This document shows positions 31,452-41,829 of a stretch of 64,000 nucleotides of DNA, one piece after another; within the stretch, counting starts at the first letter, position 1, and each line of letters opens with the position of its first letter. The notes below the pieces were generated by a model. The model did not search any database and had not been told where the DNA came from. It worked only from the letters and a program-made list of their open reading frames with translations. A program made the translations under genes and the position numbers. Origin of the DNA: Promethearchaeota archaeon. GTDB taxonomy: Archaea; Asgardarchaeota; Lokiarchaeia; Sigyniarchaeales; SOKP01. Where the stretch lies: contig JBHLNS010000003.1 of NCBI GenBank assembly GCA_048941285.1, positions 32,001 through 96,000 on the forward strand. Direction: 5' to 3'.

Positions 31452-31526
31452 TGACAGATGATGAACTTATGACAAAGTTAGCTACTTGCTCGGTAGCGAT
31501 GACAATGTCGCCCCAAACTGATGTCA
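31452..31526 (+). ncRNA. C/D-box guide sRNA
   Basis: Terminal stem TGACA/TGTCA, box C ATGATGA at 31458-31464, internal GCTAC/GTAGC hairpin followed by C'-like GATGA, and box D CTGA at 31518-31521. It is a GC-richer island in an intergenic gap. Confidence 0.85.
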
Positions 31527-31793
31527 TAACATATTAATTCCAAAATCTGCTTCTAGTCTTTTCCAAAACCGAATTCCTTTCTCCGTTAAAAAATATTCAT
31601 CATTATTTTGATTAATAAGCCCTAAATCACGCAAAACGGGTATTCTCCCATTTATACAAGAAATTGGCAAACCAGAGAATAATTTTATTGTTTCAAAATT
31701 TTTTGCCCCATTATTAATAGCAACTAGTATTTCAATTCCCATGTAACCTAAAAGATTTTTTAAATCTTCATGAGTTTCTTCATTTTTTGGCAT
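31524..31793 (-). CDS. Small winged-helix protein
   Basis: L.DLGLI......YFLTEKG wing motif. Confidence 0.75.
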   Translation of the reverse strand: MPKNEETHEDLKNLLGYMGIEILVAINNGAKNFETIKLFSGLPISCINGRIPVLRDLGLINQNNDEYFLTEKGIRFWKRLEADFGINML

Positions 31794-31825: not shown

Positions 31826-33037
31826 TTACTTTTTTTTAGAATTTTTCCCTTTTTTGTTTTTTGTAGATTTACTATTTTCATTTCTATCTGTTTTATATTT
31901 ATCTGCTATCACAGATTCAGTTTCTTTTGGCAGTAATTTTCTCATCCATTCAGGAAATGCTGTTGTTATCTGCAAATTGGTCTTTAAAACTATATAAGTT
32001 TCACTGTTATAATTTAATTCTTCAATTACATCAAAATTCTTTAAAAATTCGATATTTTCCATTAATGATTCTAAAGACTTTTTAGACACTAATTTTGGTA
32101 ATTTATCTTTTGATATTAATCCATTTCTTAATTCTGATAGAACATTATACTTTTTTGGATCTGCCATAATTTGATACAAAGTGAAAGCATCTTCTTTTAT
32201 TTCTTCCCGAGTTTTCTTTTCATACTCACTAAAATATTCTTGAACTTTAGGGAGGAGTAATTCAATCAATTCGGGTTTATCATCGATATATTCAATAATA
32301 CTATCTGGTGGTATTCTTTCAGCATTTACTTCTTTTACTAAAAGTACATACTTCTCTACTAAACCAATTTGATTAATAAAAATAAATTGCCGTTCATCTA
32401 AAATTTCAATAATTTCATTAAAATCTTTTTCAGGATAATTTTCTATAAACCATTCTCTAAGCCCTTCTAATAAGATAGGACCTTCTGATAACTTCTCTAA
32501 TGTCATAAATATATGCTTGTCATTTAATAAGATAGCAATTTCTTCTTCTTCGGTTTTTTCCCTTGTATCTTCTAAAATGACCCAATATAGATTTTCTACC
32601 CAGGCTTTTATCAAAACCTCATTTTTTATTATTTTTTCCTGATCTTCTTCATCAAAATTATTTATATCATTTATATAAAATGCAGTATAAATTTCTTCAT
32701 TTGATTGTAACTGCTCTGAAAACTCTGTATACAGAATCGAGATTTTTTCCTCGTCTTCTGTTGTGATTTGCTGATCGAGAATTATTGAAACCATCAACAT
32801 TTCTTTATTTCCTCTTGCCCAATCTGAATGAATCTCAAAATAATAATTCAATGATTTTAGGTTTTCGAAAGAATGTGTAAAAAAACCTTCATTAAATTGC
32901 TGATCCATAATATTAGCAATTTTTAGTGCTAATTCCCTTTCTAACATGTCTCGCGGATAAGAATAAAAGACTAATGGGCCAATTTTACGATGGAAATACG
33001 ATAAAGCGATGATGGTTTTCAATAAATGAATCTCCAA
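31826..33037 (-). CDS. Longin/uDENN-domain protein (FLCN/SMCR8/NPRL2-like N-terminus) with C-terminal wHTH-like repeats
   Basis: IIALSYFHRKIGPLVFYSYP and FEIHSDWARGNKEMLMVSIILD motifs. The likely start is TTG 33022 after GGAG. Confidence 0.7.
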   Translation of the reverse strand: MEIHLLKTIIALSYFHRKIGPLVFYSYPRDMLERELALKIANIMDQQFNEGFFTHSFENLKSLNYYFEIHSDWARGNKEMLMVSIILDQQITTEDEEKISILYTEFSEQLQSNEEIYTAFYINDINNFDEEDQEKIIKNEVLIKAWVENLYWVILEDTREKTEEEEIAILLNDKHIFMTLEKLSEGPILLEGLREWFIENYPEKDFNEIIEILDERQFIFINQIGLVEKYVLLVKEVNAERIPPDSIIEYIDDKPELIELLLPKVQEYFSEYEKKTREEIKEDAFTLYQIMADPKKYNVLSELRNGLISKDKLPKLVSKKSLESLMENIEFLKNFDVIEELNYNSETYIVLKTNLQITTAFPEWMRKLLPKETESVIADKYKTDRNENSKSTKNKKGKNSKKK

Positions 33038-34840: not shown

Positions 34841-35797
34841 ATGAACGAATCAAGAGATTATAAAAAAATACTATTTTGTGGTTTAGAAAATGGTGGAAAA
34901 ACATCAATTTTATTAATATTAGATAAAAAATTTAGTTTACTAACTACTGTTAAACCGACTATAAAAGCAAGAAGAACTATCCACACAAACTCATTATTAG
35001 GCACCACTATTGTCCGGTGGGATTTAGGTGGTCAAAAAGTTTATAGAAAAATATATTTAGGGGATAAGAGTAGGTATTTCACAGAAATGCAATCAATTTT
35101 TTACGTTATTGATATCCAAGCACCTAAAAAATTTGAAGAAGCTATAAATTTTCTTAAAGATATAGTAAACATCACCTCAGATTCGCGCCCCGATAATTTT
35201 CAACTTTTAATTTTACTTCATAAATATGATCCAGACATTAAAAACAATAGTAATATTATAACTAACGTAAAATTTTTAGAAAATGAGATTTCATCAATTA
35301 TTAAAAACATTAAATATTCTATATTGAAAACCTCGATATATGATGAACCAAGTCTGTTAAAGGCTTTTTCTGATGGTGTTTTTTATGCCACTCACAAATC
35401 TGAAATGTTCCAAACTTTATTAAAAGATTACATGGGCAAAACTTATAATAGCTCTACGCTATTATTGGATCAGAATTGTTTTATTATTGCTAGTAGAAGT
35501 ACAAATCAAGCTTATCAAGAAATATGTGAGTCTATAGCGCCAAGGTTAACTCAAGCATTAGAAAAACTAGAAGAATGGGATATAAATACAATAGATATTG
35601 TAACAAACATAGAATTTCCAGAAAAACATTCAGAATTTCAAAAAGAAGGCATTATTTTTCTTAGAAAATTAGATATTGGAGAAACTCGACTATACTTGGT
35701 CGCACTTTGCTTAAATAAGAAGGTCAAAATTAAATCCTATGAATATTTGCCATTATTAGCAGAAAATTTAAAAAATCTTTTAGAGAGTTTTGGTTAA
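34841..35797 (+). CDS. Rag/Gtr-like small GTPase with C-terminal roadblock/longin-like domain
   Basis: G1 GLENGGKTS, G2 PT, G3 WDLGGQ, G4 HKYD, G5 TSIYD, then a C-terminal domain of about 130 aa (STLLLDQNCFIIAS). Confidence 0.82.
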   Translation: MNESRDYKKILFCGLENGGKTSILLILDKKFSLLTTVKPTIKARRTIHTNSLLGTTIVRWDLGGQKVYRKIYLGDKSRYFTEMQSIFYVIDIQAPKKFEEAINFLKDIVNITSDSRPDNFQLLILLHKYDPDIKNNSNIITNVKFLENEISSIIKNIKYSILKTSIYDEPSLLKAFSDGVFYATHKSEMFQTLLKDYMGKTYNSSTLLLDQNCFIIASRSTNQAYQEICESIAPRLTQALEKLEEWDINTIDIVTNIEFPEKHSEFQKEGIIFLRKLDIGETRLYLVALCLNKKVKIKSYEYLPLLAENLKNLLESFG

Positions 35798-37377: not shown

Positions 37378-40300
37378 TTGACTTACATTAAAAAAATTTC
37401 CATGAGTGGTTTTAAGAGTTTTGGAGATAGAACTGTAACAATTCGACTTTCAAGTGGATTTACATGCATCGTCGGCCCAAATGGGGCAGGTAAGTCTAAT
37501 ATTATTGATGCTCTTTGTTTTGCATTAGGCCGGTTAAGCAAAAAAACAATGAGAGCGAAAAGTCTTGAGGACCTGATTTTCGCAGGATCCAGAGGAAAAA
37601 ATCCCTCTCAAAGAGCATCTGTTACGTTATATTTTGATAATTCTGAGAACGTATTTCCAGGAGGCACAAGTGATTTTGAGATTACACGAACGATTAAGAT
37701 AGGAGGCGGTGGTGGTTATAAAATGAATGGAAAAAAGGCTACGCGCCAACAAATTCTTAACGCTTTAGCGGCAGCTAATATTGATCCAGATGGGAGCAAT
37801 CAATTTGTCCTTCAAGGAAAAATTGTAGAATTAACTCATATGAATGCAGAAGAACGTAGAAAATTTATTGAAGAATTAATTGGACTTCAAAAATATGACG
37901 AAATGAAAGATGCTACCTTAAAAGAACTAGAAAAAGCAGAAAGAGATTTAGGACAATTTGAAGCGATCTTTAAGGAAGTTTCTGCTCAGTTAAAAAAAGT
38001 TGAAAAGGAGAAAAATGATGCTTTGGCTTGGAAAGAATTAGATGAGCAAATTAATTTTTTAAATTCTCAATTAATTGCATTAAAAATTTCAATATTACGA
38101 CAAGAAGAAGAAGATCTGGAAAGAAAAATCGAAAATTCTTTAAAAATTATTGAAGAATTGCAAGAAAAGATTAATAGACAGGAAGATGTCTTAAAACAAG
38201 AATCACTTGTTATGGATAATATTCAGAAAACAATTTCAGAGAAAGAAAAAGAGAGAGAGGAGATTGCAGAAAATATCACTCAAATAAAAACTCAGATTTC
38301 ATCAAGTGAGACTACTCTTAATTTAGCGCAAAAATCAATTGAAAAATTAGTAAATGAAATTGAAACTTTAGAAAGTAAACAAATGAAACTTGAGGAAGGT
38401 CAAACCTTTGATTCATTAATTGAAAACGTTTCAAATGAAATCTTAGAATATGAGAATCATATCGAAGAAACTAAGAAAGAAATTGAAAAACGGCAGCAAA
38501 ACCAAGCTGAATTAGAACTTCAAATTAAAAATACTGAGGATGAAAATTCTCTTTTTAAAGCCGATATTTCCAAAATACAACAAAATGTTTCGTCTAATAA
38601 TGCTCAGGTCAAGATGCTCAAAGGAACTATAAAAAAAAATGAAGAAAAGAAACAAAAATTAGAAGTTGAGTTAGAGAAATTGAAAAGGGATGCAGAAAGT
38701 ATTGATGAAGCCATCGAAGCCGCCAAAAAGGAAGAAGCAGATATTAGAACTCGTATTAATGATTTAAATACTAAAATCTCAAAAGAAAACCAAAATCAAA
38801 AAGACTTAGAGAACGATATAAGTAGTCTTCAAGCAGACAAGAATCAATTAAATTCAAAATTAACAGATTTTCAAGCTTCTTTATCCTCTTTAAACACAGA
38901 AATTAAAATGAATCAAGGGACTATCCAAGAACTAAATGAAAAGAAAATTTCTATCAAGAAGAAAATTACTGATTTAAGCAAAGGTAGAGATGCTGAAAAG
39001 GCTGTAAAAGAATTACTAAAAGATAATGAGGGAATTAATAAAGATTTAAGTGAATTAAAAGCGAAATTGAAGCAAGAAAACTCAAACTATAGAAAAAATG
39101 AGCACGATTTAGAATTAATGAATATGAAGAAATATTCATTCGAATCAGAAATCAATGATAACAATGCAAAGATTGATAATATCAATACTGAACTAAAAAT
39201 TCTTTCAAAAGAATTAAAAAAATTGGATCGAGAAAAAAATAATATAGAATTGCAAGTTGACTCTTTAAGTAAAACGCTCTCAACGACAACAAGTGAATCC
39301 GAAAAATCTCAATTAAAAAAAGAAAATATTCAAAGAAGATTACAGGATCTTTCTGAAGAAAGAGAAAATTTAGTTAAGAAAATCGAGATTTCTGAAGAAG
39401 AATATGATAAGAATACAAAAGATATCACAGGAATTCTCCAAATTTTAAATATGCTCACTCAAAATATTAACATTTCGGTAGAGTCGATTAAAAGTAATAT
39501 CCAACAGTCAAATGCAGAAGCTATTGAATCCTCCGCAGAAGATTTCAAAAAATTTATTCTAGATATAATTGATATTATGAAATCAGTTGAGGATATTGGT
39601 ACAGATGAAGAAAAACCCACTGAAATGACCAGTATGCTTAGTTCTATCATGCAAACTCTAAAATTATTTACAGATAATGCCGATGATACAATTAATCAAC
39701 TAATTGAAAGAGTCAAAGAGTCTGCTGACGTTGAAGTTCAATCGTCAACAAATACATTTGATAATTTTGTTCAAGACTTAATGGAAATTCTTGAAAATGT
39801 ATATCTCTCCTTAAGGAAATTGACTATGTCTAAAAGTCAAGAATTATATAAACAATTAGAAGAGATTTCAGCAAGCATTAAATCTCAAACAGATGAATTC
39901 AATAAAAATGAACAACTATTAACTGAAACCAGAATTCAAGAGAAGCATTTTTCTGAAAATCTTTCATCCCATAATAAAAGACTTGAAGAAATTAATAAAA
40001 GAAATACTGAATTAAATCAAAGAATTAAAAAAGCAGAAGACGAAATAAATGAAAGAAGGGATATTATTAATAATCGGCAATTAGAAGTCAATAACTTGGA
40101 TTCCGAGATTAGCAAATTAAAAGAACTTAAGGATACTTTTTGGGATAACATATCTAAAATCCAAGATGATATTGATAGAAAGCAAAAGGACTTAGAAATT
40201 TTAAGAGAAAAGCTTCAAGAATTACATGGTATTCAGAATTTATTTGATAATATCGTAGAAATTGATGCTAATATAGAAAAATTAAATAGTTTTATTGAAG

Positions 40301-41829
40301 AAAAGAAAAACATAATATTAAACACTGAAGAGAGCATTAAAAATATTCAAGTTGATCAAAATTCAATCCAAAATAGCATAAATGAACATCTTATTAAAAA
40401 AGAAAAATTTTGGGGAATAACTGAGAATTTACGAAAACAGATAGATGTTGAAAATAAAAGCCTTGAAGAAACTATGGATCGTCTAAGAGCACTTGAAAAT
40501 GTGATGAGGATAATCACATCTATTGAAGATATTAAAAAAGAGAATATAGATGCAACTAATCGAATTAAAACTTGTCAAGATGATATAGAAAATCTTAATT
40601 CCCAAGTTCAAGAAATTCAAAAAAATGTGGATCAAAAACAGCTGGTTATAAACTCCTTAAGAGATGAAAAATCTCAAGAATTAGAATCCCAAAAAGCAGC
40701 TCAGAAAAAATTAAATAAACTGAATAAAGATTTACAGAGATCTCAAGGTAAACTAAATGAATTAAATAAAAACAAGGAGAGAGAACAAAAGATTCTTGGG
40801 TTGAATCAGGATATAAAAGACACTGAAGAACAAATTGAATCAATAACAAAAGAGTTAGAAGTTTTTAAAGAAGATTTAACTAATGAAAATTTGAAGAAAG
40901 ATGAAAAACAAAAAGAGATTGATAAGTTTGTACAAGAAAAGGATGAATCATGGAAAAAGCAAAAACAATATCAGAAAGTTATAACTGATTTAAAATCTGA
41001 TCTCTCCATGGAAAATTCAAAAATAAACAATTATGAATCTAAAAAGATTATGTGTACTGACCAGATAGAAACCTTATTTCAACGTTCTAAAGAATATGGC
41101 TCATTACCACCTGTAACTGGTGATCTTGTTGAAGCAGAATTGCAATCAGATATCGTAGAATTAACAAAAAAAAAGAAGGCTCTTGAACCAGTGAATTTAA
41201 AAGCAATTCAACAATATGACGCAGTTAAAGAAAGATTTGATGAGATAGATATGAGGCGTCAAACAATTCAAAGAGAAAGAAAGTCGATTCTTGATGCAAT
41301 AGATAAAATTGAATTAGAAAAAACTCGAACTTTTATGAAAGCTTATCATGAGATTAATAGGGAATTCTCAAGGATTTTTCAAAAGTTATCTCCAGGAGGT
41401 TCTGCAAAGATGATTTTAGATAGACCAGACAAACCTTTTGAGGGAGGCATTTCTATCGAAGCAAGACCCAGAGGTAAAAAAATTAGCTCACTAGAAATTT
41501 TAAGTGGTGGCGAAAAAACATTAGTTGCGTTATCTTTCATTTTTGCGGTTCAAGAATTTTATCCTGCTCCATTTTATGTGATGGATGAAATCGACGCTGC
41601 TTTAGATGGCCCAAATGTACACCGTGTTTCAATGGTTATTAAGGAATTTGCTTCACAAGCTCAATTTATGGTGATTAGCCATCGTGAGGAAAATATAGTA
41701 AACGCAGATAGAATTTATGGTGTTTCAATGCAACAAAGTGGAATCACTGATATTTTTAGCGTTGACTTAGAAGAAGAAGCTAAGAGACTCCTTGAACTTG
41801 AAGATATAGAACCAACAATTACAGAATAA
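37378..41829 (+). CDS. smc: SMC chromosome segregation protein, extra-long, without a canonical hinge
   Basis: GFKSF, GPNGAGKSN, Q-loop VLQG, PVNLKAI, LSGGEK, MDEIDAALD and ISH; followed by scpA and scpB. Confidence 0.95.
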   Translation: MTYIKKISMSGFKSFGDRTVTIRLSSGFTCIVGPNGAGKSNIIDALCFALGRLSKKTMRAKSLEDLIFAGSRGKNPSQRASVTLYFDNSENVFPGGTSDFEITRTIKIGGGGGYKMNGKKATRQQILNALAAANIDPDGSNQFVLQGKIVELTHMNAEERRKFIEELIGLQKYDEMKDATLKELEKAERDLGQFEAIFKEVSAQLKKVEKEKNDALAWKELDEQINFLNSQLIALKISILRQEEEDLERKIENSLKIIEELQEKINRQEDVLKQESLVMDNIQKTISEKEKEREEIAENITQIKTQISSSETTLNLAQKSIEKLVNEIETLESKQMKLEEGQTFDSLIENVSNEILEYENHIEETKKEIEKRQQNQAELELQIKNTEDENSLFKADISKIQQNVSSNNAQVKMLKGTIKKNEEKKQKLEVELEKLKRDAESIDEAIEAAKKEEADIRTRINDLNTKISKENQNQKDLENDISSLQADKNQLNSKLTDFQASLSSLNTEIKMNQGTIQELNEKKISIKKKITDLSKGRDAEKAVKELLKDNEGINKDLSELKAKLKQENSNYRKNEHDLELMNMKKYSFESEINDNNAKIDNINTELKILSKELKKLDREKNNIELQVDSLSKTLSTTTSESEKSQLKKENIQRRLQDLSEERENLVKKIEISEEEYDKNTKDITGILQILNMLTQNINISVESIKSNIQQSNAEAIESSAEDFKKFILDIIDIMKSVEDIGTDEEKPTEMTSMLSSIMQTLKLFTDNADDTINQLIERVKESADVEVQSSTNTFDNFVQDLMEILENVYLSLRKLTMSKSQELYKQLEEISASIKSQTDEFNKNEQLLTETRIQEKHFSENLSSHNKRLEEINKRNTELNQRIKKAEDEINERRDIINNRQLEVNNLDSEISKLKELKDTFWDNISKIQDDIDRKQKDLEILREKLQELHGIQNLFDNIVEIDANIEKLNSFIEEKKNIILNTEESIKNIQVDQNSIQNSINEHLIKKEKFWGITENLRKQIDVENKSLEETMDRLRALENVMRIITSIEDIKKENIDATNRIKTCQDDIENLNSQVQEIQKNVDQKQLVINSLRDEKSQELESQKAAQKKLNKLNKDLQRSQGKLNELNKNKEREQKILGLNQDIKDTEEQIESITKELEVFKEDLTNENLKKDEKQKEIDKFVQEKDESWKKQKQYQKVITDLKSDLSMENSKINNYESKKIMCTDQIETLFQRSKEYGSLPPVTGDLVEAELQSDIVELTKKKKALEPVNLKAIQQYDAVKERFDEIDMRRQTIQRERKSILDAIDKIELEKTRTFMKAYHEINREFSRIFQKLSPGGSAKMILDRPDKPFEGGISIEARPRGKKISSLEILSGGEKTLVALSFIFAVQEFYPAPFYVMDEIDAALDGPNVHRVSMVIKEFASQAQFMVISHREENIVNADRIYGVSMQQSGITDIFSVDLEEEAKRLLELEDIEPTITE

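Follow-up and report, generated by a model that had tools for sequence, protein, structure and literature searches.

NPRL2, FLCN, and SMCR8 are longin proteins of eukaryotic GTPase-activating protein (GAP) complexes, which turn off Rag and Arf GTPases. The loop that carries Arg78 in NPRL2 is analogous to the one that carries Arg164 in FLCN (PMC7464330), and Arg147 of SMCR8 is a visualised arginine finger that points at BeF3 in the ARF1 complex (PMC8213707). According to section 2.4 of PMC12290439, a Gly-Pro turn (the "GP motif") is present in GAP longins and absent from other longins. NPRL2 and NPRL3 share a layout in which a longin domain is combined with two or more winged-helix repeats (PMC3747258). 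A gene whose predicted product resembles these proteins lies at 31826..33037 on the reverse strand of a 64,000-nucleotide stretch of archaeal DNA, referred to here as the window (positions 32,001 to 96,000 of contig JBHLNS010000003.1, assembly GCA_048941285.1). The window comes from a Promethearchaeota archaeon of the class Lokiarchaeia, order Sigyniarchaeales. With a probability of about one in two, its product is a cytosolic small-GTPase regulator of about 398 residues that acts as an NPRL2/NPRL3-like, Arg-dependent longin GAP.

Related proteins have been described in Asgard archaea. Liu et al. (10.1101/2020.10.19.343400) present NPRL2-like proteins (Fig. 5c) and NPRL2-like longins joined to signalling domains; both that work and PMC10933270 also report proteins in which a small GTPase is fused to a longin domain. 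Section 2.6 of PMC12290439 describes "FLCN/SMCR8-type" longins that have a GP motif and an arginine finger, and raises the question of Rag or Arf-related GTPases as their partners. The protein class and the Rag/Arf-GAP idea are already published (10.1101/2020.10.19.343400; PMC12290439). The orthologue group discussed here may itself already be listed in Data S1 (PMC12290439) or in Supplementary Table 7/Fig. 5c (10.1101/2020.10.19.343400).

The gene is a single open reading frame (ORF) of 403 aa in the ORF listing of the window, with a TTG start at 33037, in AT-rich DNA (GC content 0.25-0.31 across the window). Codon 6 is also TTG (33022) and is the first residue position in 33 of the 39 rows of the orthologue alignment A1; because of this, 33022 is probably the true start, giving a protein of 398 aa. 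Homologues number 566 at E ≤ 1e-3, with 74-94% identity among the 120 matches listed, where nearly all named homologues are a "hypothetical protein" of Lokiarchaeia/Promethearchaeota. Of 61 sampled genomes of the order, 60 carry a full-length orthologue. Restricted to genomes with completeness ≥90% and contamination ≤5%, the count is 36 of 37, and the sole genome without a match is 90% complete. The ORF is a real gene and no chance frame, since it has these homologues and order-wide orthologues and yields a structural model with a mean predicted local distance difference test (pLDDT) score of 91.9. A sequence-only reading of the window had singled out this ORF and quoted two peptides and an Arg codon from it. 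The peptides are present in the translation at residues 9-28 and 67-88, the codon (AGA, for Arg75) lies at 32813-32815, and the ORF itself is confirmed by its homologues, its conservation across the order, and the confident model.

The features of the locus, in window coordinates, are as follows (pI, isoelectric point; (-), reverse strand; (+), forward strand).

31826..33037 (-): whole ORF (ORF listing, A1 alignment).
32558..33022 (-): predicted GAP-type longin domain, ORF residues 6-160 (model pLDDT 90-98; VIA-align Z 10.8-14.1).
32975..32995 (-): F15-H16-x3-G20-P21, the GP motif, in the β1-β2 turn (A1, representatives, NPRL2 alignment).
32807..32827 (-): loop S71-N77 between β4 and β5, with W73-A74-R75-G76 (A1, model, representatives).
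32312..32551 (-): predicted winged helix 1, ORF residues 163-242, pI 4.35 (model; VIA-align Z 8-9.2).
31958..32209 (-): predicted winged helix 2, ORF residues 277-360, pI 5.1 (model; sister-family match at E 1.3e-28).
31829..31957 (-): Lys-rich C-terminal tail, ORF residues 361-403, pI 10.1 (poorly conserved, low pLDDT).
31524..31793 (-): 89-aa winged-helix protein HTH_45 (Pfam E 2.4e-07).
34841..35797 (+): 318-aa Rag/Gtr-type GTPase, divergent, 1.8 kb upstream (Pfam Gtr1_RagA E 4.7e-23).

The predicted structure is that of a second AlphaFold model (mean pLDDT 91.9; predicted template modelling score, pTM, 0.82), whose input was 89 sequences (alignment A2) including 77 hand-picked representatives and in which model residue 1 is ORF residue 6. 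Model residues 3-122 follow the longin order β-β-α-β-β-β-α-α at pLDDT 90-98, with strands at 3-11, 15-22, 46-52, 55-65, and 73-82 and helices at 29-40, 88-107, and 111-122. A long helix at residues 125-153 follows the longin core. Two winged helices, each built as helix-helix-helix-strand-strand-strand, occupy residues 158-237 and 272-355, and the final ~40 residues are disordered. The C-terminal columns of A2 are contaminated by fusion GTPase domains, and the model still yields winged helices. As modelled, the ORF protein is a longin domain joined to two winged helices.

Foldseek placed four GATOR1 chains of 362-370 modelled residues at the top of the PDB: 9v0j_A, 9o5a_H, 9o5d_D, and 7t3b_B (E 1.6e-05 to 7.5e-05 over 283-317 aligned columns), with lengths and numbering that fit NPRL2. 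Chains of SEAC and FLCN entries come next in the ranking. The NPRL2 name is carried by 6ces_N and 8fw5_B in the PDB search, and the other chain identities were assigned by length and numbering. Whole-chain template modelling (TM) scores of the top four are only 0.28-0.34; the domains are therefore arranged differently from those of NPRL2.

VIA-align gave Z 8.4-14.1 to many solved longin domains. Its ranks 1-15 consist of FLCN-FNIP2, GATOR1, SEAC, Lst4, and C9orf72-SMCR8 chains together with one Lokiarchaeial longin, all at Z 10.8-14.1. The FLCN-like chains 8dhb_J (Z 14.1), 6ulg_L (Z 13.5), and 6nzd_H (Z 13.4) superpose with a root-mean-square deviation (rmsd) of 2.5-2.7 over 136-139 residues, and the Lokiarchaeial longin 8yqg_B reaches Z 13.7. 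NPRL2-like chains follow at Z 13.2 (9o5d_D), 12.2 (9v0j_A), 11.8 (7t3a_B), and 10.8 (6ces_N); 9o5d_D aligns 192 residues over model residues 1-225, and 9v0j_A aligns through model residue 219. NPRL3-like chains score Z 12.6-13.0, SEAC chains Z 11.9, Lst4 Z 11.7, and chain 7o2w_A of the C9orf72-SMCR8 complex Z 11.2. The order of the structural matches was reproduced by a Foldseek-independent search of 48,161 representative chains.

Other longins stand below the GAP-complex chains: those of Ykt6, VAMP7, Sec22b, adaptin sigma, CPLANE, TRAPP, and DENND1 score Z 9.3-9.9. By these scores, the model stands closer to the longins of GAP complexes than to those of SNAREs, adaptins, TRAPP, or DENN proteins. 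A role unrelated to GTPases, for example in SNARE-like or adaptor-like membrane traffic, has in its favour that Ykt6, VAMP7, Sec22b, and adaptin sigma/mu longins are matched too (Z 8.4-9.9). Those matches nevertheless rank below all GAP-type longins, the ORF protein has neither a SNARE motif nor a transmembrane segment, and its family is repeatedly fused to GTPase domains, so a role of this kind is highly improbable.

F15, G20, P21, W73, A74, R75, and G76 are invariant in the 39 orthologues of A1, and the model places Arg75 in the β4-β5 loop. When 150 listed representatives at 50% identity were aligned to the N-domain profile A3 (131 domain matches), the column of Arg75 held Arg in 113 of 123 non-gap cells, and the GP columns held Gly in 103 of 106 and Pro in 101 of 106. 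The genome holds seven copies of the longin N-domain, and all seven keep G-P and A-R-G. A profile alignment with NPRL2, itself not significant (E 0.33-0.53), spans the whole longin domain, and in this non-significant alignment the family motif F-H-x3-G-P falls on the F15-H16-x3-G20-P21 of human NPRL2, so that the residue numbers agree as well. Arg75 is a likely, still putative counterpart of NPRL2 Arg78.

These results bear on most of what the sequence-only reading had proposed. It called the protein an FLCN/SMCR8/NPRL2-like longin with an intact arginine-finger motif: a longin fold is predicted, its closest structural matches are chains of the FLCN, NPRL2/3, and SMCR8-C9orf72 complexes, and the conserved Arg in the β4-β5 loop and the Gly-Pro motif are borne out, the Arg being kept across the representatives as counted above. 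Its comparison with the C-terminal winged helices of NPRL2 also holds, in that the model has two winged helices, which matches the NPRL2/NPRL3 layout as given in PMC3747258. Its proposal of an archaeal longin-type GAP for Rag/Arf-like GTPases is supported as to structure, and the GAP function is plausible. That function is suggested by a GTPase neighbour in 9 of 20 loci, GTPase fusions in 12 of 89 sequences, and one weak complex prediction.

The neighbour is the 318-aa GTPase encoded divergently upstream of the longin gene. Its best PDB relatives are the Lokiarchaeial entries 8yl2_A (E 1.8e-32) and 8zla/9m28, after which come Gtr1 and RagA (about 1e-11) and, behind them, Arf and Sar1. It carries a G1 motif, a DxxGQ switch II, and an H-K-x-D G4 motif. 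The H-K-x-D form of G4 is typical of Rags. Across 21 aligned orthologues the H-K-x-D G4 occurs in 21, and they share a conserved C-terminal half of ~130 aa. Gene neighbourhoods were compared in 20 loci hand-picked from 60 genomes (long contigs, diversity favoured) with 8 kb on each side. A GTPase orthologue lies upstream and divergent in nine of these, distributed over three families of the order (f1, 5 of 13 loci; f2, 2 of 5; f4, 2 of 2). It directly adjoins the longin gene in loci L024 and L035, where the longin protein is 38-39% identical. The 318-aa Rag/Gtr-type GTPase is the first candidate substrate.

Longin and GTPase domains are also joined within single proteins. An Arf/Ras-type GTPase domain is fused after the longin domain in 12 of the 89 A2 sequences, and V4R, PAS, or TIR domains occur in others. 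Three paralogues in this genome have their own architectures: C63:5811-6851 (+), a longin fused to a P-loop GTPase domain and 5 kb from a sister-family gene; C31:31102-32094 (-), a longin fused to a degenerate GTPase-like region without an obvious P-loop; and C20:38331-39989 (+), a longin with a long C-terminal region of ~400 aa.

A predicted complex of the longin domain, the GTPase, GTP, and Mg scored 0.55 (runs 0.54, 0.55, and 0.65), and the best of three controls scored 0.05. The runs showed contact agreement of at least 83% and partner pLDDT of at least 87. In the benchmark, 58 of 80 solved complexes attained the mark, as did 2 of 110 mismatched pairs; scores ≤0.60 that pass the mark came from only 7 of the 80 solved complexes, plus both passing mismatches. 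The prediction, which returned no interface, gives weak support to a longin-GTPase complex, and its score may simply reflect resemblance to Rag-GAP complexes that are already solved.

The same longin fold and GTPase links also speak for a non-catalytic GTPase-binding platform, that is, a scaffold, effector, or guanine nucleotide exchange factor (GEF) in which the Arg would help binding or steady the loop. PMC10933270 and PMC3747258 describe GEF activity as the main role of longin/roadblock platforms, and the longin gene persists at loci for which the neighbouring GTPase was not found. The structural ranking points the other way: the nearest structures are GAP-type longins (Z 10.8-14.1), against Z 8.0-9.3 for the GEF-type DENND1, TRAPP, and Mon1-Ccz1. 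So do the GP motif and Arg, which mark GAP longins in the account of PMC12290439 and are kept in 92-97% of representatives. A platform without catalysis is accordingly held to be somewhat unlikely, though it is the most serious competitor of the GAP reading.

For an Arg-dependent longin GAP, we infer the following scheme of GTPase binding, catalysis, oligomeric state, and winged-helix role. Either as a homodimer or in partnership with a related longin protein, the longin domain would provide the docking platform for a GTP-bound Rag/Arf-like GTPase. Arg75, located on the β4-β5 loop, beside the F-H-x3-G-P turn, would enter the nucleotide pocket and speed GTP hydrolysis. The winged helices and the 89-aa winged-helix protein would mediate assembly or partner binding and not DNA binding. 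Because they are acidic (pI 4.35 and 5.1), the winged helices of the ORF protein would fit protein binding better than DNA binding.

The 89-aa HTH_45 protein (pI 5.3) is encoded 32 bp downstream of the longin gene on the same strand, and the two genes are probably co-transcribed. Of the 20 loci, 18 carry an HTH_45 homologue no more than 8 kb away, placed as follows.

Less than 100 bp downstream, same strand: 10 loci.
Fused into the same 476-aa ORF: 1 locus, L033:7761-9191 (-).
0.4-1.1 kb downstream: 3 loci.
Further off or on the other strand: 4 loci.
Not found within 8 kb: 2 loci.

The gene fusion in L033, which belongs to a genome of the same family, ties the longin-winged-helix and HTH_45 proteins together functionally. 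A rival reading makes the protein a one-component transcription regulator, in which the longin domain would sense a ligand or GTPase state while the winged helices and the HTH_45 protein bind DNA. The winged helices resemble those of ArsR, MarR, and HxlR regulators, as well as cullin-type winged helices (Z 8-9.2). The source annotation of homologue P0119 names an ArsR-family regulator, proteins of the sister family described below match Pfam HTH_5, HTH_20, and HTH_24, and the C-terminal tail is basic. PMC3747258 also raises the possibility that the winged-helix repeats of NPRL2/3 bind DNA. The acidic character of both winged helices and of the HTH_45 neighbour (pI 4.35, 5.1, and 5.3) nevertheless speaks against DNA binding, the same layout serves protein assembly in NPRL2/NPRL3, and the basic tail is the least conserved part of the protein. 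A transcription regulator is therefore judged unlikely.

Two further conserved neighbours were recorded. In 19 of the 20 loci, the gene next to the longin gene on the divergent side encodes a HAD hydrolase. An ORF of 1483 aa at 37378-41829 (+) is conserved beside the neighbourhood in 11 of the 20 related loci.

A profile search of 1.84 billion cluster representatives recovered 473 proteins at E ≤ 1e-3, of which 200 reached E ≤ 1e-10. Because most of the 473 share just the first ~150 residues with the ORF protein, the N-terminal domain is a large family found in many architectures. The ESM Atlas gave scores of at most 0.85 throughout, to be taken as leads only, including an archaeal cluster at 0.83 with Pfam NPR2 on 19% of its members. 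Arl3/Arf matches in the PDB obtained with the A2 profile (positions 165-316) were dropped; MAFFT had overlaid the GTPase domains of fusion proteins on the winged-helix region. The clean N-domain alignments A3 and A4 were built after this artefact was removed.

Several observations weigh against an NPRL2-like GAP. Pfam and PDB sequence searches gave no significant match for the ORF protein: as a single protein it met no Pfam family at E ≤ 1 and nothing in the PDB by phmmer at E ≤ 10. In PDB profile searches, NPRL2 reached only E 0.31-0.53 (E 0.33-0.53 with A3 and A4), amid chance matches such as NEMO coiled coils, a serpin, and the Apaf-1 CARD. In the NPRL2 alignment at E 0.53, which is not significant, the family Arg column falls on S77, one residue before R78. 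Among 29 family members, Pfam Folliculin (PF11704) matched weakly in one (E 0.051) and Pfam Afi1 weakly in four (best E 0.031). The NPR2 model (PF06218) found nothing in the genome at E ≤ 1, in a search that its controls did not validate. The IML1 model (PF12257) found no DEPDC5/IML1 homologue in this genome (94% complete), in a search left unvalidated by the lack of any signal in the 14 control genomes. The first structural model, made from 39 close homologues, was poor (pLDDT 56) and was left out of the fold searches; the winged-helix secondary structure of the second model agrees with it.

The GTPase partner counts on the same side, as does the precedent of longin and roadblock platforms, most of which serve as GEFs or scaffolds. 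The GTPase orthologue was not found within 8 kb in 11 of the 20 loci. In four f1 genomes without the neighbour, the closest GTPase anywhere in the genome reaches only 33-35% identity, whereas f1 orthologues show 53-86%; for one f2 genome, the genome-wide GTPase test cannot tell whether the orthologue is present. Since the longin gene is kept in 60 of 61 genomes although this GTPase is missing in some, it cannot depend on the neighbouring GTPase alone.

A second family shares the architecture of the ORF protein and lacks its arginine. Matches at E ≤ 1e-8 occur in 61 of 121 genomes of the phylum; beyond the order they span only residues ~133-374, in ORFs of ~360-440 aa with a few of ~530. Thirteen genes of this sister family were examined, namely L043:5917-6999 (-), L041:5638-6750 (+), and 11 more ORFs in L042-L053. 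Their layout is a longin domain and two winged helices in ~360 aa. In the sister N-domain, W-D-x3-G takes the place of F-H-x3-G-P, and the loop that corresponds to the Arg75 loop lacks a conserved Arg. Alignment of the Arg-type and sister N-domains by hhalign gave a probability of 75.6% and E 2.4e-05 over 101 columns, pairing F with W, the next residue (His here, mostly Asp in the sister family) with D, and G with G. C9orf72 contains W33-D34 and G38-P39 in the description of PMC12290439, and the spacing of the sister W-D-x3-G is the same as that of its W33-D34/G38.

The sister family is probably the "NPRL2-like" family of Liu et al. Its profile A6 matched only ArsR/MarR winged helices in the PDB (E 0.005-0.05), with no GAP longin among the matches, and the A3 profile recovered none of the 13 distant sister proteins even at E ≤ 10. 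Within 6 kb of the 13 sister genes, there is no homologue of the GTPase, HTH_45, or the HAD hydrolase. This genome has six full-length sister copies and only one protein that joins an Arg-type longin to two winged helices. Sister copies lie at the following positions.

C83:18256-19371: sister copy.
C43:40531-41643: sister copy.
C61:33189-34637: sister copy.
C30:83068-84153: sister copy.
C63:11990-13243: sister copy.

In addition, C61:25052-33037 (-) is a 2661-aa open frame whose last ~355 residues form a full sister module (E 4.4e-77); the frame may represent a giant fusion or an ORF that was called too long.

The pair of families raises the prospect, an unlikely one, that Lokiarchaeia had a two-part, GATOR1-like switch-off module. 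In it, an Arg-finger subunit would be paired, through longin and winged helices, with an Arg-less sister and would act on Rag/Gtr-type GTPases. If so, the split into catalytic and non-catalytic subunits seen in NPRL2/NPRL3, SMCR8/C9orf72, and FLCN/FNIP would predate eukaryotes. If the ORF protein does activate GTP hydrolysis by an archaeal Rag-type GTPase in an Arg-dependent way, eukaryotic nutrient signalling would rest on a core chemistry (Rag GTPase plus longin GAP) older than lysosomes and TOR. The locus provides a defined, testable pair, and its value lies in a concrete and well-conserved case and not in a new concept. Relatives of the GTPase are already crystallised (8yl2, 9m28), and the candidate GAP is soluble, is ~400 residues long, and offers an obvious point mutant.

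NPRL2 (yeast Npr2), the Arg78 subunit of GATOR1/SEACIT and GAP for RagA/Gtr1, has the same layout of an N-terminal longin domain and winged helices as the ORF protein. It also provides the best Foldseek matches, and in the non-significant alignment its GP motif has the same residue numbers and the family Arg falls within one residue of its R78. A gene for its substrate class, a Rag/Gtr-type GTPase, is likewise near this longin gene. The two differ in that sequence similarity is not significant (E 0.3-0.5) and the domain arrangement is not the same; the likeness is one of predicted structure.

FLCN (Arg164, in FLCN-FNIP) and SMCR8 (Arg147, in C9orf72-SMCR8-WDR41) have longins among the best structural matches. 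They share the GP motif and probably the Arg loop, as set out in PMC12290439, with the ORF protein. In both, a DENN domain follows the longin, whereas the ORF protein has two winged helices instead. A structure from the same archaeal group, the Lokiarchaeota Roadblock-Longin protein of PDB 8yqg, ranks first or second among the structural matches (Z 13.7, rmsd 2.9, 135 residues) and was solved as a dimer. It differs in sequence (11% identity) and domain context and was missed by the PDB profile searches; a literature search found no paper on 8yqg or 8yl2.

The Asgard NPRL2-like and FLCN/SMCR8-type longins are of the same class as the ORF protein and have the same GP and Arg arrangement. Within that class, the longin and C-terminal-domain family is found in most Thor and a few Loki genomes as Liu et al. 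present it, whereas the orthologue group described here joins an Arg-type longin to two winged helices in 60 of the 61 genomes of its order.

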